Part shown: positions 10,490-63,447 of the stretch, piece by piece | Layout of the letters: each line of letters begins with the position of its first letter | How positions within the stretch are numbered: the stretch's first letter is position 1 | Origin: Desulfobacterales bacterium | GTDB taxonomy: Bacteria; Desulfobacterota; Desulfobacteria; Desulfobacterales; SpSt-501 | NCBI GenBank assembly: GCA_025454255.1 | Contig: JALOOU010000045.1 | Coordinates: forward strand, 11,279-75,278 | Direction: 5' to 3' | DNA: 64,000 nt | Translations under genes and position numbers: made by a program | Notes under the pieces: generated by a model | Databases searched by the model: none | The model's input: the letters and a program-made list of their open reading frames with translations, nothing else | Told to the model about the DNA's origin: nothing

Positions 10490-12319
10490 ATGTTCGGCAA
10501 CTTCATCTATTTCATCCTGGTCCTGCTGATCTACCTCACCTACACCCCGGCGGAGCAGACCCATTTCAGCGCGGCCGAGAGCCTGCTGCTCGCCGGCCTC
10601 CTGAGCCTCGCCTTCGCGGCCGCCACCCGCCACGGCTTCAAGCGCATCGAGCTCGGGATGGGACGGATCGGCTCGGGTTCGGCCGCGGCCCGCTTCCAAT
10701 CAGCGCAGCTGCGCGGCTCGGTCCTGGCAGTGGCCGTGTTCGCCCTGGATGTGTACGGGCTCAACCTGCCCTCCTTTCTTATCGACGCGCCGCTCTTCAG
10801 CCGTGCGCCCACGCTGCAGGCGCTCCTTTTCCTCGCGCTTTTCACCGGGCACCTGTGCCTGGTCTGGGCGTTCGGCTTCGAGGTCTACCGCCGGCTGCAC
10901 CCCTTCGCCGGGGGGAACCGCCGCCATTATGTGGGCTCGCATGTCTCCTTCTCGCTGCCGGTGCTGATCCCCTGGGCGCTCACCTCGGCCCTGGCCGATG
11001 CCGTCAACGCCCTGCCCTTCGAATCGCCCCGGGCCTTTCTATCGACGACCGAGGGCCAGTTCGCCTACTTCGGCCTGATCATGCTGGCCATCGCCCTGGT
11101 CGGGCCGTTGATGATCCAGAAGCTCTGGCGCTGCACCCCGCTGGCGGCCGGGGGGCACCGGGAGCGGATCGAGGCCCTGTGCCGGCGGGCCGGCATGGAC
11201 TACCGGGACATCCTCTCCTGGCCGCTCTTCGGCGGCCGGATGGTCACCGCCGCCGTGATGGGGCTGATCCGCCGCTTCCGCTACATCCTGGTGACTCCCG
11301 CCCTGCTCGACCTGCTCGAGCCCTTCGAGGTCGACGCCGTGGTCGCCCACGAGATCGGCCACATCAAGCGCCGGCACCTGGTCTTCTACCTCGTCTTCTT
11401 CGCCGGCTACCTGCTGGTCGCCTACGTCGCCTTCGATCTGATCCTCTACCTGATGCTCTTCGTCGAGCCGGTCTGGTGGCTGGTGCACCACAGCGGGGTC
11501 AACGAGGCGACCGCCGCCTCGACGATCCTGAGCCTGATGATGATCGGCGTCTTTCTCGTCTATTTCCGCTTCGTGTTCGGCTATTTCATGCGCAACTTCG
11601 AGCGCCAGGCCGACACCTACGTCTACCGGCTCTTCGACAGCGCCCGGCCGCTCGTCACCACGCTGCAGAAAATCGCCTTCACCAGCGGCGAGCCCCGCAA
11701 CCAGCCCAACTGGCACCACTTCGGCATCGGCGAGCGCATCGACTACCTGCAGCGCTGCGAGCGCGACCCGGACTGGATCCGGCGCCACGACGTCAAGGTG
11801 CGCCGGAGCATCGCCGTCTACCTGGCCGGCCTCGTCCTGCTGGGGACGGTCGGCTACCAGCTCAACCTGGGCACGATGGGCGCGCGCATGAACAACCACC
11901 TGTTCGCGAAGGTCATCGTCCGCCAGCTCGAGCGCCAGCCTGCCAACCCGGCCCTGCACGGGCTGCTGGGGGATTTCAAGTACGCCCGAAAACAGTACGC
12001 AGAGGCGCGCAGCGCCTGGGAATCCGCGCTGGCCTTGAAACCCGACACCCCCGCCGTGCTCAACAACCTGGCCTGGCTGCTCGCCACCTGCGAGGAGCCG
12101 GGTCTGCGCGACCCCGTCCGCGCCTTGGAGCTCGCCGAGCGGGCGGCCGGCCTGGAGCAGTCCGCCTACATCCTGGACACCCTGGCCGAGAGCTACCACG
12201 TCAACGGCCGCCATGCCGATGCGGTCGCCGCCGCGCGGCTGGCCCTGCGCCTGGCCACGGGGGACCCCGCCCACTACGAGCGGCAGCTCGCGAAATTCCT
12301 CGCAGCCGCGGGGGAGTAA
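10490..12319 (+). CDS. M48 family membrane zinc metalloprotease with C-terminal TPR repeats
   Basis: Multiple TM segments, AHEIGH (HExxH), FERQAD, TPR LNNLAWLLAT...DTLAE. Confidence 0.88.
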   Translation: MFGNFIYFILVLLIYLTYTPAEQTHFSAAESLLLAGLLSLAFAAATRHGFKRIELGMGRIGSGSAAARFQSAQLRGSVLAVAVFALDVYGLNLPSFLIDAPLFSRAPTLQALLFLALFTGHLCLVWAFGFEVYRRLHPFAGGNRRHYVGSHVSFSLPVLIPWALTSALADAVNALPFESPRAFLSTTEGQFAYFGLIMLAIALVGPLMIQKLWRCTPLAAGGHRERIEALCRRAGMDYRDILSWPLFGGRMVTAAVMGLIRRFRYILVTPALLDLLEPFEVDAVVAHEIGHIKRRHLVFYLVFFAGYLLVAYVAFDLILYLMLFVEPVWWLVHHSGVNEATAASTILSLMMIGVFLVYFRFVFGYFMRNFERQADTYVYRLFDSARPLVTTLQKIAFTSGEPRNQPNWHHFGIGERIDYLQRCERDPDWIRRHDVKVRRSIAVYLAGLVLLGTVGYQLNLGTMGARMNNHLFAKVIVRQLERQPANPALHGLLGDFKYARKQYAEARSAWESALALKPDTPAVLNNLAWLLATCEEPGLRDPVRALELAERAAGLEQSAYILDTLAESYHVNGRHADAVAAARLALRLATGDPAHYERQLAKFLAAAGE

Positions 12320-50059: not shown

Positions 50060-53000
50060 CTACGCCTCCACCGCCGCGTCGATCTGGCAGAGGAGCTCCT
50101 CGTCGGTGAAGTGCTTGAGCACGATCGCCCCGGTCGGGCACTTGGCGTTGCACAGGCCGTCGCCCTTGCAGAGCACCGGGTTGACGGCGGCCTTTTTGCC
50201 CTGCCGCGTCTCGCGGAACTCGATCGCCCCGTAGGTGCAGGCCGCGATGCACTCCCCGCAGGCCATGCACCTCTTCTCGTCCACTTCGCACACCGCGCCG
50301 GAGGCGACGACGGTGTCGTGGGAGAGCAGCGTCAGCACCCGACCCGCCGCCCCATAGGCCTGCTTGATCGTCTCCGGGATGTGCTTGGGGTAGTGCGCCA
50401 GCCCGCAGAGGTAGACCCCGTCGGCCGCGAACTCGACCGGGCGCAGCTTGACATGGGCCTCCTTGAAAAAGCCGTCCGGGCTGAGCGACACCTTGAACAA
50501 GCCGGCGATCTCTTTGGTTTGTTCGGAAGGGACGACCGCAGCGGCCAGCGCGAGCACATCGGCATCGATCACCAAGCCCCGCCCCAGGATGGGGTCGTTT
50601 GCCGTCACCCTCAGAACCGCCCTGCCGCCCTCCTTCAGGGGTTCCACCTGCGGCGGGTCCTGCGGCTCGTAGCGGATGAAACGCACCTCCTTGTCCGCAG
50701 CCTCCCGGTAGTGGTCCTCGCTGAACCCGTAGCTCATCATGTCCCGGTAGAGGATGTAGATCTCAACTGCAGGGTTGAGCTCTTTGAGCTTCAAGGCGTT
50801 CTTGATGGCGGCGCTGCAGCAGATCCGGCTGCAGTAGTTCCTCTCCGCGTTGCGGCAGCCCACGCACTGGATCATGACGATCCGCTCGGCGTTGACGACC
50901 CGCCCCTCCGCCGCGGCGATGCGCTCCTCGAGCTCGAGCAGGGTCATGACCCGCTCGTCCTGCCCGTAGCCGTATTCACCGGGTTGGTAAAGCTCCGCGC
51001 CGATGGCGATGACGGCGGCGCCGTGTTTGATCTCGGCGGGCCCGCGCTCGGATCGGACCTTTGTGACGAAGTTGCCGACGTAGCCGGTCGCCTCCGTGAT
51101 GGCGGCATGGGTGTAGACGTGGACGAGAGGGTGCCGGTAGATCGTCTTGACGAGCTCGCGCACATAGGCCTGTACGTCCATCCCGTCCAGGGTGTAGTGC
51201 AGCCGGCGTGCGATCCCGCCCAGCTCCGCGTCCTTTTCCACCAGGTGCACCTCGTGGCCCTGCCGGGCGATGGAGAGCGCGCAGGTCATGCCGGCGACCC
51301 CGCCGCCGACCACGAGCGCCGCCTTGTCGACCGGCAGGTCGAACTCCTGCAGCGGCTCCAGGCGGCCGGCGCGCGCCACCGACATGCGCACGATGTCCTT
51401 GGCCTTGCGGGTGGCCTCCTCCTTCTCCTTGGAGTGGACCCAGGAGCAGTGCTCGCGGATGTTGGCCATGTCGAAGTAATATTGGTTGAGCCCCGCCTCG
51501 CGCAGGGTGTCGCGGAAGAGCGGCTCCAAGGTCCGGGGGCTGCAGGCGGCTACCACCACGCGGTTGAGCCCCTTCTCCTTGGCCAGATCCGTGATCTCCT
51601 TGGCGCAGTTGGAGGCGCATGAAAAGAGCTGCTCCTGGGCGTAGACGACGTTGGGCAGCCCGCGCACATAGTCGACCGTTGCGGGCACATCGACGATCCG
51701 CCCGATGTTGGCCCCGCAGTGGCACACGAAGACCCCGATCCGCGGCTCTTCGGCGGCGACCTCCGTTTCCGGCGGGTAGGTCCGCTCCCGGGTCAGCTTG
51801 CCGCGCCGGTAGTCCAAAAGCGCGCCGCAGTGGGCCCCGGCGCCGCTGGCGGCGAAAACCGACTCGGGGATGTCGATCGGCCCCTGGAAAGCGCCGCTGA
51901 CGAAAACTCCGGGCCGGCTCGTCGCCATGGGGGCGAAGGGGTCGACCTTGCAGAAGCCGTGCGCGTTGGTCTCGATGCCGAAGGTTGCGGCCAGCCGCTT
52001 CGCATCGGCGGGAGGGGTCAGGCCGACGGAGAGCACCACGAGGTCGAACGCCTCCTCCTTGACGCCGTCGGCAGGGGTCGCATAGCGGATGACCACGTTG
52101 TTCGTCTCCGGCAGCTCCTTTACGACCGAGACGTAGCTGCGGATGAAGCGCACCCCGGGCAGCTTTTCGGCCCGCTCGCAGAAGCGCTCGAAATCCTTGC
52201 CGTAGGAGCGGATGTCGTTGTGGAAGACGGTGCACTCGGCCGCCGCGTCGTGGTCCTTGGCCAGGATCACCTGCTTCTGGGTGTAGGTGCAGCAGACCGC
52301 CGAGCAGTAGCTGTTGTCGCCCGGGGTCACGCGCCGGGAGCCGACGCACTGGATCCAGGCGATCTTGTGCGGGTGCCTGCGGTCGGAGGGGCGCAGGATC
52401 TCGCCCTCGTACGGCCCGGTGGCGCACAGCAGCCGCTCGAAGTCCATGCTGGTGACCACGTTGGGCATCCGGCCGTAGCCGTAGTCGCCACGCAGCTTGG
52501 GATCGAAGGGCTCGAACCCGGGGGCCAGGATGACGGCGCCGACCTTGATCGCCATCTTCTCGGGCGCCTGGTGGAAGTCGATGGCGTTGTTTTTACAGAC
52601 GCCTTCGCAGATGCGACATTTCTTCTCCTTGAGGTAGAGGCAGCTCTCGTCGATGTAGGCGACCAGCGGGATGGCCTGGGAGTAGTAGATGTGGACGGCC
52701 TTGTTCGGCGAAAGCTCCTGGTTGAAAGGGTCGGGGTAGTTGACCGGGCAGTACTCGACGCAGGTGGTGCACCCCGTGCACTTCTCCTCCACGATGTAGC
52801 GGGGCGTTCTGACCAGCTCGACCGTGAAGTCCCCCGCCTCACCGGAGACGCGTTCGACTTCCGTCAACGTCAGGATCTCTATGTTCGGATGCCGGCCGAC
52901 CTCGACCAGTTTGGGCGAAAGAATTCACATCGAACAGTCGTTGGTCGGAAAGGTCTTGTCCAGCTGGGCCATGCGGCCGCCGATGGCCGGCGATTTGTCG

Positions 53001-53155
53001 ACCAGGTAGACCTTGAAACCGGCGCCGGCCAGGTCGAGCGAAGCCTGGATGCCGCTGATCCCCCCGCCGAGCACCATGACATCCCCGAAGCGGCTGCCGC
53101 CAAGGCCCCGGCAGAGCTCCTGGACTTTTTCCTTCAACAACAAGTCTCTCTCCAC
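50060..53155 (-). CDS. bamE: BamE: HdrA-like flavin/Fe-S subunit; Sec at UGA 52925-52927
   Basis: ORFs 52925-53218 and 50060-52867 share a frame: [27 protein letters not shown]; two GGG.G FAD motifs, [16 protein letters not shown]; hairpin CTGGTCG-AGGT-CGGCCGG at 52892-52909; probable GTG start. Confidence 0.9.
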
Positions 53156-53248
53156 GTGTTGCATCCTCTCGTCGGATGCGAGGCGCAGACCGCCGCCGGG
53201 CCTATCCGGATGTGCCACGCTCCGAAAATGGGGCGTGAAACGCCGGGG

Positions 53249-54400
53249 CTACACCGCCTCGCGCAGTATCTCGGCAATGTCCTTGATCTCGATCTTATCC
53301 GCCAAACCGGTGGTCAGCCGGCTGTCCTCGAAATTGGCGATGCAATAGGGGCAGGAGGTCGCCAGGACCTCGGCCCCGGCTTCGGTCGCCTGCTCCAGCC
53401 GCAGGTCGGAGAAGCGCTCGCCGCGCGGGGTCTCCATCCAGATCCGGCCCCCGCCCCCGCCGCAGCAGAGGCTGTCGACACGCGACTCGGCCATCTCGAG
53501 CAGCTCGAGGCCCGGGACCTTTTTCAAAACCGCGCGCGGCTCCGCGTAGATCCCGTTGTGCCGGCCCATGTAGCAGGGGTCGTGGTAGGTCACCCTCTTT
53601 TTGAACTCTTTTGCGATCTCAAGCCGGCCCGCCCGGATCAACTCCGCCAGGTACTGGGAGATGTGCACCACCTCGAAGTTGACCCTGAATTCGGGGTACT
53701 CGTTTTTGAAGGTGTGGTAGCAGTGCGGCGAGGAGACGAGGATCTTTTTGACCCCGTGGTCGATGAAGGTTTTTATGTTTTCACGGGCCAGACGCCTGAA
53801 GGCCTCCTCGTCGCCCGTCTTGCGGATGCTCTCGCCGCAGCAGTTCTCCTTGGCCCCCAGGATCCCGAAGTCGACCCCGGCCTTGTTGAGAAGCTCGGCC
53901 GTGGCCCGCGCGACTTTTTTCAGCCGCGCGTCGTAGCTCAGGTAGCAGCCCGGGAAATAGAGGATCTCCATCCCCTCGGCGAAGCTCTTGACCCCGAGGC
54001 CTTCGGCCCAATCCGCCCGCTTCCTGCGTTCTTCGTTCAGGGGGTTGCCCTCGCCCATGAGGCTGCCGCGCACGCCGCGGATCGGCCGCGCCGTGGCGGG
54101 AAACACCCCGTACTCGGTTGCGATCCGGCGCAGGGCCACGCCGGAGTCGATCTGCCGGACGTCCCGCGGGCAGTGCTGGGGGCAACGGCCGCAGGTGGTG
54201 CAGCGCCAGATGTCCTCGCTTTCGATGTCGGTCATCCCGAAGGCCGCCTCGCGGACGATCCGGCGCATGCTGAAGGCCCGGAACCGGTTCCAGGGGCAGA
54301 CCACGTCGCACAGGCCGCACTGAAAGCAGAGTTTGAAGGCCTCCCCGCCGTTGGCTTTGATGACATCGACGATCTCTTTGTAGTCGGCTACGTTGTCCAC
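53249..54400 (-). CDS. bamD: BamD: HdrD/GlpC-like Fe-S protein with CCG domains
   Basis: CFQCGLCDVVCP, CTTCGRC...CP, ENCCG, YHDPCY.GRHNG, CCGGGGG, TSCPYC. Confidence 0.9.
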   Translation of the reverse strand: MDNVADYKEIVDVIKANGGEAFKLCFQCGLCDVVCPWNRFRAFSMRRIVREAAFGMTDIESEDIWRCTTCGRCPQHCPRDVRQIDSGVALRRIATEYGVFPATARPIRGVRGSLMGEGNPLNEERRKRADWAEGLGVKSFAEGMEILYFPGCYLSYDARLKKVARATAELLNKAGVDFGILGAKENCCGESIRKTGDEEAFRRLARENIKTFIDHGVKKILVSSPHCYHTFKNEYPEFRVNFEVVHISQYLAELIRAGRLEIAKEFKKRVTYHDPCYMGRHNGIYAEPRAVLKKVPGLELLEMAESRVDSLCCGGGGGRIWMETPRGERFSDLRLEQATEAGAEVLATSCPYCIANFEDSRLTTGLADKIEIKDIAEILREAV

Positions 54401-54429
54401 GGCCTGTCTCGACCCTCTTGCGCCTTGGT

Positions 54430-54978
54430 TCAGCCCTTTTTCGCAACCGCCATCCGGGCAACGGCTTCCATGATCTTGTCCAGCCCGTACTTGTCGGCCA
54501 ACGCCTCGAGGCCGGTGTCGAGCTCCTCCCCGGCCGCCGCCTCTTCGACCTCCTCCTCCCGCTCTTCGTAGACCAGGGCGTCCGTGATGCACCACTGGAC
54601 GCACAGGGGCTGCTTCAACTCCGGGTCGCTCTCGCACATATCGCACTTCAGGGGCAGCCCGGAGTCGGGCTCCTTGAAAAGGTCCCGCGACGGGCAGGAG
54701 GCGCGGCAGAAGGAGCACTCGTCGTACTCCTTGCCGTCGATCGTGTACTTGTCGCGGCCCATGCACTCGGCCCGGGCGTGCTCGCCGGCGTAGACGGGCA
54801 CATAGATGTCTTTGAGGGGTTCGCGGATCACCCGGATGCGGGAGCGCGCCGGGTTGTTGCTGCTGTACTTGGGGGCCGCGTGAAAAGCGGAGCAGGCCAC
54901 CTCGCACGCCCGGCAGCCGTTGCACTTGTCCACATCGACCTTGATGGTTTTTATCTTCTTCCTCTTTTTCTCGCCCAT
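54430..54978 (-). CDS. bamC: BamC: 4Fe-4S ferredoxin subunit
   Basis: KCNGCRACEVACSAFH, NPARSRI, ECSFCRASCP, KCDMC, CVQWC; directly after bamB. Confidence 0.9.
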   Translation of the reverse strand: MGEKKRKKIKTIKVDVDKCNGCRACEVACSAFHAAPKYSSNNPARSRIRVIREPLKDIYVPVYAGEHARAECMGRDKYTIDGKEYDECSFCRASCPSRDLFKEPDSGLPLKCDMCESDPELKQPLCVQWCITDALVYEEREEEVEEAAAGEELDTGLEALADKYGLDKIMEAVARMAVAKKG

Positions 54979-54999
54979 GGCGGCTCCCATCCCTTCGCG

Positions 55000-57006
55000 T
55001 TAGTTGGCCGCAGGCCCTTTCGGCGCCTCCGCAGAAGCCGCCTCCACTGCATCGGTCAGGATCCCACGTTTGAGGAAGTCCTCGGCCACATAGTCCAGCC
55101 CCAGCCCGCGCAGGGAGTCCTGGGTCGGCACCCCGTCGTTGTTCCACCCCTTGAACGCGTAGTAGGTGTCCAGGAGCTCCTTCTCCAGCTCGGGGAAGCG
55201 CTTCTTCCAGTGGTTTTCGGGCGGCTTCTCGTCCTTGCGGCGCATCCCCCGCCGGATGTTGATGGCCCGGACCAGCGTCCGGTACCTGCGGGCGGCCAGC
55301 GTCAATTTCTCCTCGTCCATCTCGATCCCGGCCCCGGCGGAGATGAACTTGGGGTAGTTGTGGATGTGGTAGGGCGGCTTCAGGGGGAAGGAGGAGAGCC
55401 CGGCGCACATCCCGAGCGCATCGTCGATGTAGTGCATCCGCTCCTGCCAGTCGACGATGTCGCAGCACATCGGCACCGTCGGGTAGAAGGGGATCGATTT
55501 CTCCCCGCGGGGCTCCCAGTCCAATAGGTACTGCTTGAACTTTTCGTCCGGCACCTGGAACCAATCCTTGACGAATTTCTCCCGCTCCTCGCGCGTGGCG
55601 AAGGGCGCCTGGGGAAACTGCCCTTCGATCTGGGTGATGTTGATCTTCTCGCCGGTGGCGTACATCAGAAAGTAGATGGGGTTGAGCATCGAGAGCTTGA
55701 GCGGCAACTGCTCGTGCTTCTTGATGTTGTTGTGGGCGTAGGCCTCAGCGCCCTTGCCGATCTGTTTGGCGGCCCAGTAGGTGCCGTTGGCAAGCAGATC
55801 CCCGACCCCTTCGCGCCGCACAATCCGGTCGAGCAGCCAGTGGAAGCGCTCCTCGTTGCCGGCGGGCAGGCCGGGCAGGTCGGTGTCGGTGAGGATGCCG
55901 TTTTCGTAAAGCTCCAGCGCAAAGGCCATCACCTGCGGGGTCGAAAACCCGTCCACGCCGTACTCGGTGGCGCGCTGCGCGATGTGCAGGCCGAACTCCA
56001 GGTCGGCCATGGCCGCCATGGTGTAGGTGAGCTTCGAGAAGCACTTCATCATGTAGGTCGGCAGCCCCGGCACCGAAATGGTCGCCCCGCATTTCATAGG
56101 GCAGTTGTAGCAGCTGATGAGCCGGGTGCGCATCTTCTCCAGCGTCTCGGTCCACTTCTCGGCGACCTCCTGGTTCCAGAAATCCTTGCGGCGGAGCCTG
56201 GAGTTGCCCCACATGAAGTTTTCCGTGTGCCACTTCTCGTCGTGCACGGCCATCTCCTGCGGCGAGCCGAGCCCGGCCAGTATGGGCATGACCCCCTCGA
56301 TCGGATTGGCGTTGCGGAATTTTATGTACTCCAGCACCTCGTTGCAGAGCTCCATGAACTCTGCCGGCCGGGCGATGTTGATGTCCTTGGTGCCGCGCAC
56401 GGCGATCGCCTTCAGCCCCTTGTCGCCCATGACGGCGCCGATCCCGCCCCGGCTGGCGCTGGAGCGGCCCTGCTCGATGGAGGCGAAGTAGACCCGGTTC
56501 TCCCCGGCCAGGCCGATGGCGGCCACCTGGGCCTTGGGCTCCTTCAACTCCTGGCGGATCAGCTCGGCCGTCTCCCCGGCGCCCTTGCCCCGCAGGTGAG
56601 AGGCGTTGCGCAGCTCCACCGTGTCGTTGTTGATCCACAAGTAGACCAGCTCGGGCGACTTGCCGCGGAAGATCACCTTGTCGTAGCCGGCGTATTTCAA
56701 TTCGGGCGCCCAGAAGCCCCCCATCATCGAAAAGGCCATCAGCAGCGTCTGCGGCGAGATGGTGGAGACGATGGTGCGGTTGCAGCCGGTCGCCGGGGTG
56801 CCGCACAGCAGGCCGGCGCTGAAGATCAGGAGATTTTCGGGGGAGAACGGTTCGACCTCGGGCGGGACCCGGTCCCACAATATTTTGGCGTTGGTGCCCA
56901 GGCCCCCCAGATAAAGCTCGGTGTCCCGCGGGTCGGTTGCCACCCGCTCAATGCTCCCGCGGGTGAGATCGATCTCCAAGTTGTAGCCTGTCTCTGCGTA
57001 CCTCAT
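55000..57006 (-). CDS. bamB: BamB: tungsten-containing catalytic subunit of class II benzoyl-CoA reductase (AOR family)
   Basis: MRYAETGY.LE.DL, SPQEM.VHDEKWHTENF, ISCYNCPMKC, MMKCF.KL, HEQLPLKL, closely matching the Geobacter BamB sequence as I recall it. Confidence 0.93.
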   Translation of the reverse strand: MRYAETGYNLEIDLTRGSIERVATDPRDTELYLGGLGTNAKILWDRVPPEVEPFSPENLLIFSAGLLCGTPATGCNRTIVSTISPQTLLMAFSMMGGFWAPELKYAGYDKVIFRGKSPELVYLWINNDTVELRNASHLRGKGAGETAELIRQELKEPKAQVAAIGLAGENRVYFASIEQGRSSASRGGIGAVMGDKGLKAIAVRGTKDINIARPAEFMELCNEVLEYIKFRNANPIEGVMPILAGLGSPQEMAVHDEKWHTENFMWGNSRLRRKDFWNQEVAEKWTETLEKMRTRLISCYNCPMKCGATISVPGLPTYMMKCFSKLTYTMAAMADLEFGLHIAQRATEYGVDGFSTPQVMAFALELYENGILTDTDLPGLPAGNEERFHWLLDRIVRREGVGDLLANGTYWAAKQIGKGAEAYAHNNIKKHEQLPLKLSMLNPIYFLMYATGEKINITQIEGQFPQAPFATREEREKFVKDWFQVPDEKFKQYLLDWEPRGEKSIPFYPTVPMCCDIVDWQERMHYIDDALGMCAGLSSFPLKPPYHIHNYPKFISAGAGIEMDEEKLTLAARRYRTLVRAINIRRGMRRKDEKPPENHWKKRFPELEKELLDTYYAFKGWNNDGVPTQDSLRGLGLDYVAEDFLKRGILTDAVEAASAEAPKGPAAN

Positions 57007-60024: not shown

Positions 60025-60777
60025 TCATACTTTAGCCTGGATTCTCAGCTGCTTGTCCGGCCAGAGGGCAAACTCCGCCGGAAGCAGGCCGACGATTTCG
60101 TGGCCGGACATGCTGTAGAGATCGTAGGTCACATCCAGCTGCTGGACGACATCGATGAAACGGTAGAGCGACCCCGGGGCCCTGCGGTTCATGATCGGGC
60201 CGCGCTTGGGCCTGTTGCGGGCATCGTCGAAGTAGAGCAGGTGCAGCGCCTCCATGACGCCCCGGTTGGTGATAAAGCTCTGCCGTGTCGCGATTTCGTG
60301 GTGGAAGTGGTTTTCGACGGAGAGCACCGAGTGCAGCAGCAGCTTGGACAACTCCTCCCCCCACTCGTAGACGGTGTAGACGAGATAGGCCCCCATGAGC
60401 AGATGCCTGTGGCCGTGGGGGTATCCCGGCTCGGGAATGTGGCGGTAATCCCGCCCCGGCCGGCGCCGGCCCTTGTCGTTGGCCGGGCAGACCTGGTCGA
60501 AATAGAAGAGCGACATCCAGCTCCAGAGGTGCACGTCGCCGGCAAGCGCATCGGGCCGCTCGGGCAGATCCTCCAGCGTTCGGTCCAGGTAGCGCGCCAG
60601 GGCCAGGCGCGAGTCGAAGGCCGTGCGCTCAAGCTGCACCCGCCCGCCGACGGGCTTCGCGCATTCGGGATCCGCCAGCAGCCCCTGCGGCGGCTCCGAA
60701 GCCGCCCCGCCCCCCAGTTCGTGCAGATAGGCCCGGAACCGTTCGAGCCCTTTGTCTGTGAATTTTCTGAGCTCCAT
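60025..60777 (-). CDS. Hypothetical protein (gene 3 of GHKL operon)
   Basis: 250 aa, 6 nt after gene 2; LWSWMSLFYFDQVCP, RHLL.G, RQ, Q.D.TYDLYSM, LLP.EF. Confidence 0.8.
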   Translation of the reverse strand: MELRKFTDKGLERFRAYLHELGGGAASEPPQGLLADPECAKPVGGRVQLERTAFDSRLALARYLDRTLEDLPERPDALAGDVHLWSWMSLFYFDQVCPANDKGRRRPGRDYRHIPEPGYPHGHRHLLMGAYLVYTVYEWGEELSKLLLHSVLSVENHFHHEIATRQSFITNRGVMEALHLLYFDDARNRPKRGPIMNRRAPGSLYRFIDVVQQLDVTYDLYSMSGHEIVGLLPAEFALWPDKQLRIQAKV

Positions 60778-60783
60778 CAGCGC

Positions 60784-61542
60784 CTAGCGCAGCTCCTCGA
60801 ACGCCCGGTTGAATTTCGCCAGCACCTCGAACTTTGCCGAGAAGGCCTCGACCGCCTGGTCGATCCATTCCTGCCGCCCCTCTTTGAATGCGGGCGGATC
60901 GCTCATCCCGGGCAATTGCCGCGCGAGCCGCAGCCACAGGCTGGGCCAGTCGTCGTCGCAGTCCGGGTCGGTGTGGTCCTCTGCGACCACCACCCGCGTC
61001 AGGACCTGCCGAAAAACCTCCGGGTAGACCAAGGCGAAAAAACGATGGTCCGAACCGGCCACGAGGCCGATCTCGTCCACATGTTGATTCAGTTTCAAAA
61101 CCGGCCAGTCCCCGTCGAGGTCGAGCTGCCAGATGGCATGGCCCAGGTCGTCGTATTCGACGAACAACAGCGCGTGGCTGCCGGCCGGCTCGCGCTCCAC
61201 GGTCTCCGGCCGGATCTTGTCGAGCGCGGCCAGGATGCGTCCGTGCGCAGAGGAGCGATCCACCACCTTGACCCGGAACAAAGGGGTGGTCGCAGCCGAA
61301 AAACGGCTCAGCCGGCGGTCCGCCGGGCTTTTGCGGTTGGAGATGCTGCCGAAATCGAAGCGCTGGTAGGCCGTGCGGTGGTAGGCCTCGGCGTAGATGC
61401 GGGCATTCGCGGGCAGCCTCAGATCGGAGAGGTCCGCCTGCAGGTTGAAAAACCTGCGGCCCTCGGCATCGCGCAGGATGTCCACGCGCACGCTGGTCCG
61501 CCTGATCTTTTTGCGGCCGGTGAAATTGATCTTCCGGATCAT
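60784..61542 (-). CDS. Hypothetical protein (gene 2 of GHKL operon)
   Basis: 252 aa, MIRKINFTGRKKI, beta-rich N-half (RFDFG, FRVKVVD), helical C-half; 9 nt after gene 1. Confidence 0.8.
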   Translation of the reverse strand: MIRKINFTGRKKIRRTSVRVDILRDAEGRRFFNLQADLSDLRLPANARIYAEAYHRTAYQRFDFGSISNRKSPADRRLSRFSAATTPLFRVKVVDRSSAHGRILAALDKIRPETVEREPAGSHALLFVEYDDLGHAIWQLDLDGDWPVLKLNQHVDEIGLVAGSDHRFFALVYPEVFRQVLTRVVVAEDHTDPDCDDDWPSLWLRLARQLPGMSDPPAFKEGRQEWIDQAVEAFSAKFEVLAKFNRAFEELR

Positions 61543-61551
61543 GTCATGTTC

Positions 61552-63447
61552 TCAAGGGTAGGTTCGCACCCGCAGGTCCCGGCGGGTGTCGAAGCCGGTC
61601 ACCGTCAGCCTGAAGTCGCTGCGCACCACCTCGATCTGAATCGCATTCTCCTTGCAGAGCTTGAGGCGGGCGCCTTCGCTTCGGATTTGGATCGGCTCCC
61701 GGCTCACGTCGAAATCGAGCGGGGTGTATTTCTTGAACGGGTTGCCGCTGCGGACCTCGTAGGCGATCCACTGGGTGATCAAACGCGGGACCTGGGTCGC
61801 CCGGGTGCGCCGGCTCAACCGGAAGCCGCCCTTGACGGCGCTCAGCTGCAGGTAGCTGCCGGGTTCGAGTTCGATGAACTCCCCGCTCCCGGGCAAGGCG
61901 TTCTCTTTTTCGGATGGCTGCCTCCCGGGCGTTTCAGCGTTTCCCGTCGGTTCGAGCGGCACCGCGAAGATATGCTTGAGCAGGTTCTCGTCGCGGCCCT
62001 TCTGCGGCTGGGTCAAAATTCTCACCAGCTCCCGGGGGCTGGTCTTGACATAGTCCAGCGTGGCCGGGCCCAGCTTGTACCTGCTTTTGAACTTCTTCGA
62101 ATTGCGCTCCCATTGCGTGTGCGCCGGGTTCTCCGCATCGCCCAGAAATGCGGAGAGGCCGCTCTCGGCAATTGAGACGATCGCGCGCACGCCCTTGTGT
62201 TTGAGCGATGAGACCTCGGGGATGGTGATCCCCTGCCGGATGAAATGATCCTCCGGCCGGTCCAGCTTCTCGTCCCGTTCGAGGAAGACGGAAAAGCCGG
62301 TGTGAAACGTCTGCGCCCCGTCGTGTTTTATGACCGCAACCGGAACACGGAACGCCAGCCGGCGGCCGACGGCGAATTCGCCCCGGATCGCATCCAGCTG
62401 CTCGGCGTCGAAGAGCTCCTCGGTGAGCTTGGGGCGCTTTCCAACCAGGGGCTCCTTGAGCTGAATGCAGCGCTCCAAGGGCTGGTGGATCGCCCAGCGC
62501 GCCAGGCCCATCAGACCGGGCAGCCCCTGCTTCTCCGCCCACTGGGATTTCTTGAGGTAGTCGTCCAGGCTGGCCGCATCGAGCCGGACCCTTTTGCCGT
62601 CGAAGCTGAGCTCTACCACGAGCTGGCCGGCCAGGATGGGGAAAAAATAGTGGCGGATCACCGCGGCGGCACAGCCTCTGAGATGGATCTCCTTGTCCGG
62701 GTAGGGGATCAGAACGGAGAGGCCGGGTTTGCCGATGCGGTCCAGCGAAAAATGGCGCGAAAACCTCGCGTGGTAGCTTGGGTCTTCCACCGGCAGCGCC
62801 AGATGGCCGCGAAACAAGCCGAAATACCCGTAGGGTGCATAGCGCGCGCCGTCCAACTTATGGATTTTGAGGACGGACTGCCCCATCAGGCAGGCGCGGC
62901 CGTCATCCCGGCGAACGGTGAGCCCGAAAAAGGTGTTGATGCGGGAAGCCGCCTGGAAGACGGTTTTACCCAGACCCCAGCGCCCCAGGTCGGTCAGCTC
63001 TTTCTGGGTGCGCCCGATGTTGCGCCAGAAGTAAAAGAAGTCGTTTTTGGGGGCATCCTCGTCCAGGTCATCGTACTGCAGCACATCCCCTTGAAGGCCC
63101 CGCGTGCCGTAGTCCTCGATCACCATCGCGCTCAGCGGTTCGATCAGGGGGGGCGCCTCCGGAAGGCCCGCATGCCGGGAGCACAGATGCGGAGCCAGAC
63201 CGTCGATGTAGCATCGGCGCAGCTCGTCAGCATCGACGCCTGCGATCGGGTGCGGGTGATGGGAGAAGCGCACGGTCACCGGCCCGCCCCCGTCGGCCGC
63301 ATCGAGGGAGTTTTGAATGGATTCGCGCACCAGTGCGTCCGTGATGCTGCGCAGCGCCTCGGTGGTGAAAAACTCCCCCTCGATCGGGTCGACATTCATC
63401 TCCCCGGGCTGCATCGCCCGGAAACGCCACTGGGGTTGAAAAGTCAT
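61552..63447 (-). CDS. GHKL-superfamily (MORC/MutL/Hsp90-like) ATPase of unknown function
   Basis: Bergerat motifs LVRESIQNSLDA (N box), IEDYGTRGL (G1), GRWGLGK (G2); no His-kinase H box. Confidence 0.8.
   Translation of the reverse strand: MTFQPQWRFRAMQPGEMNVDPIEGEFFTTEALRSITDALVRESIQNSLDAADGGGPVTVRFSHHPHPIAGVDADELRRCYIDGLAPHLCSRHAGLPEAPPLIEPLSAMVIEDYGTRGLQGDVLQYDDLDEDAPKNDFFYFWRNIGRTQKELTDLGRWGLGKTVFQAASRINTFFGLTVRRDDGRACLMGQSVLKIHKLDGARYAPYGYFGLFRGHLALPVEDPSYHARFSRHFSLDRIGKPGLSVLIPYPDKEIHLRGCAAAVIRHYFFPILAGQLVVELSFDGKRVRLDAASLDDYLKKSQWAEKQGLPGLMGLARWAIHQPLERCIQLKEPLVGKRPKLTEELFDAEQLDAIRGEFAVGRRLAFRVPVAVIKHDGAQTFHTGFSVFLERDEKLDRPEDHFIRQGITIPEVSSLKHKGVRAIVSIAESGLSAFLGDAENPAHTQWERNSKKFKSRYKLGPATLDYVKTSPRELVRILTQPQKGRDENLLKHIFAVPLEPTGNAETPGRQPSEKENALPGSGEFIELEPGSYLQLSAVKGGFRLSRRTRATQVPRLITQWIAYEVRSGNPFKKYTPLDFDVSREPIQIRSEGARLKLCKENAIQIEVVRSDFRLTVTGFDTRRDLRVRTYP

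Follow-up and report, generated by a model that had tools for sequence, protein, structure and literature searches.

Prokaryotic MORC or paraMORC proteins of the GHKL type have been predicted to act in restriction-modification (R-M) systems with superfamily II helicases, DNases, Dcm and Vsr, and the published account of paraMORC1-5 describes traits that recur in the system treated here, namely a GHKL plus S5 module to which a C-terminal extension specific to the family is added, a sporadic and laterally mobile distribution, and an association with Dcm, Vsr and R-M systems (PMC2292703). An N-terminal GHKL ATPase is fused in one chain to a PD-(D/E)xK nuclease in Tiamat (10.64898/2026.09.30.754977) and in the GHKL-Shedu protein VcSduA (PMC12137116), and in these accounts the ATPase is thought to gate the C-terminal effector in anti-phage defence. 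Closest of all is PDC-M33, one of the PDC systems, a set of 145 candidates found, as their source puts it, embedded in BREX, DISARM or type I R-M systems (10.1101/2024.01.29.577857). We describe here a three-gene operon (the triad) on the minus strand of a 64,000-nucleotide stretch, positions 11,279 to 75,278, of contig JALOOU010000045.1 from a Desulfobacterales bacterium, the whole of which is called the window; the operon encodes a GHKL ATPase and two small proteins of unrecognised family.

On sequence comparison the triad is a divergent relative of the catalogued candidate PDC-M33, with partner proteins that show no detectable similarity to those of that system. Its three genes are an obligate unit, which is accessory, horizontally exchanged and patchily spread across phyla. 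The explanation that we lean towards is that the triad is a machine most likely devoted to restriction-like defence against foreign DNA, be it phage or plasmid.

The operon and its conservation

The triad consists of the following open reading frames (ORFs):

61552-63447, minus strand: gene 1, ORF of 631 aa; ATPase subunit of the GHKL superfamily, distantly homologous to PDC-M33A of PADLOC
60784-61542, minus strand: gene 2, ORF of 252 aa; unrecognised family, predicted bridge between the ATPase's C-terminal domain and gene 3
60025-60777, minus strand: gene 3, ORF of 250 aa; unrecognised family, mostly helical, candidate effector or sensor

An earlier note on this DNA had described three tightly packed, co-oriented genes of these lengths with gaps of 9 and 6 nt, and the ORF list bears this out (61543-61551 between genes 1 and 2, 60778-60783 between genes 2 and 3); the motifs that it quoted (RESIQNSLDA, DYGTRG, GRWGLGK, FIRQGITI...AENPAHTQW, LWSWMSLFYFDQ, RHLL and YDLYSM) are all found in the translations. 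A promoter and terminator scan of the window locus gave nothing exceeding the shuffled background.

Whether the three genes co-occur elsewhere was checked in a scan of one genome per species, which yielded 197 loci with relatives of gene 1, and the best 80 of these were analysed. Genes 1, 2 and 3 follow each other in the same order and on the same strand in 77 of the 80, with junctions that in many cases abut or overlap by a few bases, and the three non-collinear loci (L010, L061 and L076; loci are denoted by L numbers) end at a contig edge. Word-indexed searches at E <= 0.001 returned 1911 homologues of gene 1 among 8000 scored candidates, 445 of gene 2 and 345 proteins for gene 3; among the matches listed, essentially all lack a name or are called “hypothetical”, and Pfam domains are absent. 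Because of these counts and of the collinear triads in other genomes, the genes are taken to be real and not chance ORFs.

Scans against Pfam, NCBIfam and PHROGs gave no significant match for any of the three proteins (PHROGs reached only E 0.045 and 0.26 for gene 3), so that the absence of a recognised family, claimed earlier for genes 2 and 3, extends to gene 1. Searches of PDB sequences with single proteins and with profiles found nothing for gene 1 and only noise (E>=0.4) for genes 2 and 3. The statement that the operon is without a methyltransferase, helicase or recognisable nuclease holds for the window.

Relation to PDC-M33 and other described systems

The sole match returned by PADLOC was that of gene 1 to PDC-M33A (E 1.1e-14; residues 25-300 of its 631, aligned to positions 24-283 of the 627 in the profile), compared with E 3.5e-82 over the full length for a true PDC-M33A member. 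When gene 1 was aligned with the Arthrobacter PDC-M33A by hhalign (98.8%, E 1.3e-16), the alignment covered residues 27-485 and left the C-terminal domains unaligned. The two systems have in common three co-oriented, packed genes of near-identical size (628, 295 and 252 aa with overlapping junctions in Arthrobacter; 639, 288 and 262 aa in Enterococcus), ATPases that are homologous over the GHKL and transducer domains, including an E-(N/P)-P-x-H-x-x-W motif, and a tendency of both families to adjoin methylase, restriction and abortive infection (Abi) genes. As a divergent relative of PDC-M33 the triad is, then, not wholly without precedent.

The partner proteins were compared by several routes. 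PADLOC's PDC-M33B and PDC-M33C models gave no match to genes 2 and 3 at E<=1, nor any to those of five divergent relatives, hhalign returned 0.9% for gene 2 against nine PDC-M33B sequences and 1.7% for gene 3 against eight PDC-M33C sequences, and DUF6339 (PF19866, equal to PDC-M33C) matched none of the 69 relatives of gene 3. The equation of gene 2 with PDC-M33B and of gene 3 with PDC-M33C/DUF6339 was rejected on this lack of significant similarity between single sequences or small alignments. The best local alignments are collinear but far from significant, comprising a W-rich helix in gene 3 and, in gene 2, a VYPE/ILPAL helix followed by a W motif. The plasmid triad of Arthrobacter agilis matches PDC-M33A, B and C with E 3.5e-82, 6.4e-30 and 1e-31, respectively, and its third protein is Pfam DUF6339. 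The claim that the operon fits no named system survives in part: the ATPase is homologous to PDC-M33A and the three-gene layout is identical, but the B and C models miss genes 2 and 3. No PADLOC model of a named system matched any triad protein, and in the papers searched, the supplementary tables of the PDC preprint not among them, neither PDC-M33 nor DUF6339 is named and the work on GHKL defence and paraMORC yielded no description of the triad.

PDC-M33 also differs in where it is found, since it is plasmid-borne in Bacillota, Actinomycetota and Deinococcota; of 401 genomes from the phylum of the window one encodes its B protein, which is also found in 18 plasmid records, and a metagenome scan with the Arthrobacter PDC-M33A brought up no relative. 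From paraMORC operons, for which their account takes as defining the superfamily II helicases and the DNases of recognisable kind, whether HNH, TIR or of the restriction-endonuclease fold (PMC2292703), the triad is set apart by description, as it has neither in recognisable form and instead two dedicated small partners. Unlike in Tiamat and GHKL-Shedu, the candidate effector is a separate protein of unrecognised fold, predicted to be joined via an adaptor. In topoisomerase VI the B subunit holds GHKL and transducer domains and the A subunit cleaves DNA. The partners in the triad differ, as no Toprim or winged-helix (Spo11-like) protein is seen among genes 2 and 3 and the fold of gene 3 is unmatched, and the C-terminal domain of gene 1 is modelled as a beta-sandwich, not as a long transducer helix.

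The GHKL ATPase

Four regions can be distinguished in gene 1:

62698..63411, minus strand: Bergerat-fold ATP-binding domain, residues ~13-250, with E42-x3-N46-x2-D49, D112-x-G-x-x-G117 and G155-x-x-G158-x-G160-K161
61999..62685, minus strand: transducer (S5-like) domain, residues ~255-483, with the family motif G436-D-A-E-N-P-A-H443-T-x-W446
61861..61974, minus strand: low-confidence linker, residues 492-529, pLDDT < 50
61555..61860, minus strand: C-terminal beta-sandwich, residues 530-631, predicted dock for the N-terminal strand of gene 2

In GHKL proteins, motif I provides the catalytic Glu and the Mg-binding Asn, motif II (D-x-G-x-G) the adenine-binding Asp, and motif III reads G-x-x-G-x-G. 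Gene 1 has motif I (E-x3-N-x2-D) as R41-E42-S-I-Q45-N46-S-L-D49-A50, motif II as E111-D112-Y-G-T-R-G117, where the second Gly lies one residue past the textbook position, and motif III as G155-R-W-G158-L-G160-K161. Across 65 homologues E42, N46, D49, D112, G117, G155, G158, G160 and K161 are invariant, and so is the family-specific motif of the transducer, G436-D-x-E-x-P-A-H443-x-x-W446. In the AlphaFold2 model built from this 65-sequence alignment (mean pLDDT 82.2, pTM 0.70), both a Bergerat fold and a following transducer domain are seen, residues 492-529 are disordered and residues 533-630 form an all-beta C-terminal domain. A Foldseek search of the PDB with the model gave 279 matches at E<=0.001, every match listed being GHKL, with topoisomerase VI-B at the top (3.7e-10) followed by Hsp90 and GyrB, and the fold alignments span residues 13-483 of gene 1 against residues 4-406 of Hsc82, 1-331 of MutL LN40, 9-384 of MORC3 and 118-561 of SMCHD1. 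The modelled fold and the invariant residues place gene 1 among the GHKL ATPases of GHL type (ATP-binding domain plus transducer), and the earlier proposal of a non-kinase GHKL ATPase with a transducer is backed by these matches and alignments.

The label “MORC-like” is too narrow. Gene 1 is not specifically MORC, because Pfam HATPase_c_3 matches none of 39 relatives (nor the window protein) and MORC is not the best fold match. SMCHD1 ranks first in a separate fold search of 48,161 chains; the likeness to SMCHD1 and MORC exists only at the level of the GHL module that is common to Hsp90 and MutL, the sequence identity is 10-12%, and gene 1 has no hinge, CW or coiled-coil domain. This bears on an explanation that we find quite improbable, namely that the triad compacts or silences DNA without a nuclease, the ATPase dimer clamping foreign or unmethylated DNA in a kind of xenogeneic silencing, as eukaryotic MORC or SMCHD1 would, and genes 2 and 3 serving as loaders or readers. 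The fold likeness to these two proteins is no better than that to Hsp90, topoisomerase VI-B or MutL, and a more stable inheritance than presence in 8 of 201 genomes of the order would be expected of such a device; the failure to recognise a nuclease is, moreover, weak evidence that there is none.

The partner proteins and the predicted complex

Gene 2 has no match in Pfam, NCBIfam, PHROGs, PADLOC or PDB sequences. A profile search of 1.84 billion cluster representatives returned 2133 at E<=0.001, and the best 150 of these are mostly stand-alone proteins of 240-270 aa; M1, R3, N6, T8, R10, E52, R90, K92 and several Trp are invariant. Searches of the ESM Atlas led from gene 2 to unnamed clusters of its own kind only and gave no usable match for gene 3. 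One source names the gene 2 homologue P0185 “uncharacterized protein YacL (UPF0231 family)”, a label that no Pfam or NCBIfam model supports for the window's gene 2 and that is probably a spurious automatic name.

The model of gene 3 is mostly helical and confident (pLDDT 92.9, pTM 0.88), and has no structural relative in Foldseek searches of the PDB (best E 1.7) and of BFVD (none). Positions invariant in 69 sequences include W85, W87, H125 (within H-R-H-L-L), R165, Y182, R206, D219 and E235, and of the three proteins gene 3 would be the foremost candidate for target recognition or attack. The notion that genes 2 and 3 are paralogues was rejected (hhalign 0.3%); they had appeared to cluster because of over-extended ORFs and one fused ORF.

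A complex was predicted from residues 255-631 of gene 1 together with gene 2 and gene 3 on custom alignments, and gene 2 was the chain scored. The median score was 0.74, and the highest that any of three controls attained was 0.23; the mark reached is one that 116 of 157 solved complexes and 2 of 215 mismatched pairs also attain, a calibration that is only rough for custom alignments and three chains. The runs share at least 76% of their contacts, with a partner pLDDT of at least 81. In the predicted assembly, residues 1-10 of gene 2 contact residues 619-631, 533-542 and 564-572 of gene 1, i.e., the beta-sandwich, and residues ~50, 92-94 and 99-103 of gene 2 touch residues 163-171 and 216-223 of gene 3. 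The contacts fall on residues that are invariant in the three alignments (1-10, K92 and G101 in gene 2; F619, R623 and D624 in gene 1; R165 and D219 in gene 3), which is an independent reason for taking the predicted interfaces seriously. The model favours binding, in line with the earlier suggestion that the proteins of the triad assemble, and gene 2 is predicted to bridge the ATPase's C-terminal domain and gene 3.

Distribution and decay of the triad

The best 80 loci with relatives of gene 1 come from Desulfobacterota (Thermodesulfobacteriota), Burkholderiales and other Pseudomonadota, Nitrospinota, Nitrospirota, Planctomycetota, Acidobacteriota, Myxococcota and Bdellovibrionota, and in archaea from two metagenome-assembled genomes (MAGs), a Brockarchaeota and a Methanoregulaceae, and the tree of gene 1 follows taxonomy only in part. 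The profile of gene 3 is present in 8 of the 201 genomes of the window's order, the window genome included, and in none of four further members of its genus, whose genomes are each 98% complete or more. A very distant triad (670, 260 and 257 aa) is found on a plasmid of Rhizobium leguminosarum, where the second and third genes align with the profiles of genes 2 and 3 at hhalign probabilities of 97.5% and 99.6%. Some copies are damaged: in-frame stops (TAG or TAA) interrupt gene 1 of L017, L051 and L064 and gene 3 of L065, a truncated gene 2 is followed by an insertion of ~1.3 kb ahead of gene 3 in L050 (12363-14034), and a 411 aa ORF in L013 (11605-12840) fuses gene 2 to gene 3 from residue ~69. 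At about ten more loci there are only partial best alignments, in which decay and assembly error are indistinguishable. A conserved fourth gene of the whole family was considered and rejected, as the commonest flank cluster occurs in only 9 of the 80 loci.

This pattern makes it scarcely credible that the triad is a housekeeping complex for chaperoning or DNA repair, akin to Hsp90 or MutL and without a role in conflict. Such a complex would agree with the top fold matches to Hsp90- and MutL-type modules, with the high conservation of gene 1 (58-82% identity among its best 120 homologues) and with the purely metabolic neighbours at many loci, but the triad is missing from all four same-genus genomes and from 193 of the 201 of the order, has copies with in-frame stops, and recurs beside R-M and defence genes.

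Little credence can be given to a function for mobile elements, in which the triad would be an addiction, exclusion or anti-defence module of integrated elements. The patchy distribution across phyla would suit it, as would the transposase or insertion sequence genes near L017, L062 and L078 and the location of the PDC-M33 relatives on plasmids, where 18 records hold the B protein. The family of the window itself, however, hardly occurs in collections of plasmids, phages and viral contigs, and neither an integrase nor a tRNA lies near the window locus, the flanks of which are mostly chromosomal genes.

Neighbourhoods and the methylase link

The nearest ORFs of at least 150 aa, up to three per side, were examined with Pfam (269 ORFs at 76 loci) and a subset with PADLOC; L024, a duplicate of L023, and L042, L046 and L052, where there is no such ORF, were left out. 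R-M, defence or toxin-antitoxin (TA) genes flank the triad in 25 of the 76 loci (17 with R-M or methylase genes and 8 with others), a count not set against matched random genes. That it exceeds expectation rests on the general estimate that only a few per cent of the genes in a genome serve defence. The flanks concerned are:

L021, L047, L060, L062: type I R-M
L040: type III R-M
L031, L067: Eco57I- or MmeI-like
L041: McrBC and methylase
L025: N6_N4 methylase
L067, L070, L072, L075, L076, L077, L078, L080, L081: Dcm
L017: PDC-S11/DUF4268, AbiEi, WYL
L022: PDC-S11-like
L023: Cas3
L027: RES, SIR2-TIR
L044: ParE, SoFic, second GHKL
L049 and L050: HKD-SNF2, with ImmA or AbiEii
L059: ZorD/DpdE-like helicase

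In a wider scan, two of these loci proved to be multi-system defence islands, L047 with HsdS, Hachiman HamA/B, AbiEii-WYL and HsdM, and L062 with SIR2-HerA, RhuM and HsdR. The window locus by itself gives no defence-island signal. Its closest relative, L003 (80% identity), has the upstream HD-domain gene in common with it and a different downstream flank.

The link to DNA methylation is found in divergent relatives. A local tblastn search puts Dcm next to the triad in nine of the 80 loci and, in eight of these, Vsr as well; the genes lie 11-2510 nt away and their orientation varies. Several lineages are represented among the Dcm proteins (25-53% pairwise identity), which argues for functional pairing over one inherited adjacency. 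In the tree of gene 1 with PDC-M33A as the root, four of the five Dcm-linked loci that it includes fall into two early branches, L077 being nested. The window's own clade has no linked methylase, and no cognate methyltransferase was found in or beside the window operon. The suggestion that the system might be modification-dependent is not favoured, given the nine divergent relatives with Dcm (eight also with Vsr) and a window genome in which no C5 methylase was detected; the Dcm/Vsr pattern agrees better with methylation that shields self DNA than with an attack on modified DNA.

Methylase genes recur next to PDC-M33. Among nine plasmid loci inspected, five adjoin methylase genes (Dcm or N6) and three have annotated endonuclease genes, and the triad of Arthrobacter agilis has a dcm-vsr-type II endonuclease cluster on one side and a Shedu gene on the other. 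The neighbours on the other plasmids are:

Enterococcus: AIPR gene
Paenarthrobacter: type II restriction endonuclease and dcm
Planococcus: DNA cytosine methyltransferase
Lactococcus: AbiGII
Priestia: MutH/Sau3AI family endonuclease
Ligilactobacillus (two plasmids): N-6 DNA methylase and MmeI-type methyltransferase genes
Deinococcus: none of these

It is this linkage that bears on an explanation of the abortive-infection or toxin type, which we consider unlikely, whereby the ATPase complex would sense a phage protein or a perturbed state of the cell and free gene 3 (or gene 2) as a toxin that arrests the cell, methylation being irrelevant. Both the Dcm-Vsr linkage at nine loci and the methylase linkage at five of nine PDC-M33 loci point to a DNA substrate, and the fold searches saw no known toxin fold in gene 3.

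A proposed mechanism and the evidence against it

Returning to restriction-like defence, the complex would consist of a clamp (gene 1), an adaptor (gene 2) and an effector (gene 3). Proteins of the GHL type dimerise on ATP, and by analogy with Hsp90, MutL, topoisomerase VI-B, MORC and SMCHD1, gene 1 would do so as an ATP-gated clamp. Through its invariant N-terminal strand, gene 2 is predicted to extend the beta-sandwich of the ATPase and, with its body, to hold gene 3. The complex may act on invading DNA, as suggested by the neighbourhoods and by the Dcm-Vsr and methylase links in the basal relatives and in PDC-M33, and gene 3, or less likely gene 2, would recognise or cleave the target, no catalytic fold being recognised. 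In the early-branching relatives linked to Dcm, methylation probably marks self, and the triad may act on unmarked DNA. The assembly in this scheme is a prediction, and we infer its role in defence, its DNA target and the part played by ATP. The “ATP-driven DNA-sensing or restriction complex” of the earlier note is thus partly upheld, through the conserved unit, the predicted assembly and the R-M, Abi, TA and CRISPR neighbours elsewhere; its dependence on modification is what is disfavoured.

A number of observations weigh against this scheme. No nuclease, helicase or methylase domain is recognisable in the three proteins by Pfam, NCBIfam, PADLOC, PHROGs or PDB sequences, and the 145 PDC candidates, PDC-M33 among them, are called untested in the source that lists them (10.1101/2024.01.29.577857). 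In 51 of the 76 loci the nearest ORFs include no defence, R-M or TA gene, the neighbours being metabolic, regulatory or of unknown kind, and no defence gene lies in the flanks of the window's own triad, which encode proteins with BNR repeats, an HD domain and DUF488 as well as two unknown ORFs. Among 72,556 plasmid records there was only one full-length, distant match to the triad, among 50,697 phage records one weak and partial match covering 39% of gene 1, and a scan of IMG/VR found no relative of the triad. The window's genome, which is 87% complete, has no match to the C5 methylase family PF00145, compared with 9 of 14 control genomes that do, and the basal place of the Dcm-linked loci rests on very long outgroup branches, so that the root is unsure. 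Lastly, when genes 2 and 3 were kept and the ATPase fragment was swapped for an unrelated protein, the complex score was 0.23, which leaves the contact between gene 2 and gene 3, taken alone, not independently supported.

A more specific form of the defence explanation, which is doubtful as a whole, would make the triad a new type of methylation-guided machine for restriction or silencing, made of a GHKL clamp like MORC, SMCHD1 or Hsp90, a dedicated adaptor and an effector of unseen fold, ancestrally paired with Dcm-Vsr and later independent of the methylase. Its effector would be either a new class of nuclease or a nuclease-free device for trapping DNA.

Other genes at these loci

At six of the nine PDC-M33 plasmid loci the ATPase gene has, directly upstream of it, a small hypothetical gene (62-80 aa) which the family of the window lacks and which is absent from PADLOC's three-gene definition; the exceptions are Enterococcus, Lactococcus and one that the annotation leaves unresolved. 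Coordinates recorded for this gene are:

L084:5669-5896
L086:870-1058
L087:877-1110
L089:837-1067
L090:636-878
L091:648-890
L092:864-1094

In four Planctomycetota loci only, all of which also have Dcm, a protein of ~215 aa without a Pfam family is encoded directly upstream of the ATPase gene and in the same orientation. Its copies are 33-41% identical, and it may be a fourth subunit or a regulator of that sub-type:

L067:8429-9907, plus strand: 492 aa ORF with the ~215 aa protein as its C-terminal part
L075:9162-9971, plus strand: ~215 aa upstream protein
L076:9306-9950, plus strand: ~215 aa upstream protein
L078:9296-9955, plus strand: ~215 aa upstream protein

The contig runs ~930 nt past the end of the window, and no tRNA or integrase is found near the locus. 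An HD-domain gene (window 63680 onward; Pfam HD, E 2e-5) is divergently transcribed and adjoins a gene for a 128 aa protein (L001:4218-4604, minus strand, ~220-610 nt past the right end of the window) that matches the Pfam “Active DUF488-N3 subclade” PF22751 with E 1e-44. DUF488 is not conserved beside the triad, and the HD-domain gene was rejected as a component, being adjacent only in the closest relative, L003. Downstream of the triad, window 50060-57006 (minus strand) resembles, by its translations alone, a heterodisulfide-reductase-type Fe-S flavoprotein cluster (935 and 771 aa), together with a 668 aa ORF similar to aldehyde:ferredoxin oxidoreductase, and these ORFs fit an anaerobic organism of the sulfate-reducer type.

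Two further genes were met at other loci. In a Casimicrobiaceae MAG, an unrelated second GHKL protein of 623 aa (L044:15694-17565, plus strand; Pfam HATPase_c_3, E 5.6e-11, no PADLOC match) is encoded ~2.3 kb downstream of the triad, right after a SoFic gene (PADLOC E 1.3e-118). A Pseudomonadales MAG has a UvrB gene with an intein and a LAGLIDADG homing endonuclease (L041:12491-16237, plus strand; Pfam Intein_splicing and LAGLIDADG_3).

Significance

GHKL ATPases have recently been recognised as engines of anti-phage defence (Tiamat, GHKL-Shedu and SLFN-Argonaute fusions), and to our knowledge all of the studied examples are fused to a known nuclease. The triad represents a large, cross-domain family of obligate three-gene GHKL systems, comprising 1911 homologues of gene 1 and 2133 cluster representatives of gene 2 at 50% identity, in which the modelled gene 3 has a probable new fold. 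Current defence finders would miss it, because only the ATPase half-matches a candidate model. The triad fits the long-predicted association of GHKL ATPases with R-M systems and ties the candidate PDC-M33 to a much wider superfamily. Were it a defence system, it would bring a new effector fold and a three-part architecture of clamp, adaptor and effector, and would offer a tractable bacterial model for the coupling of a GHL ATPase to cytosine methylation. If the guidance by methylation were also true, the triad would be the parallel in prokaryotes to the way in which MORC and SMCHD1 ATPases are tied to cytosine methylation in eukaryotes.

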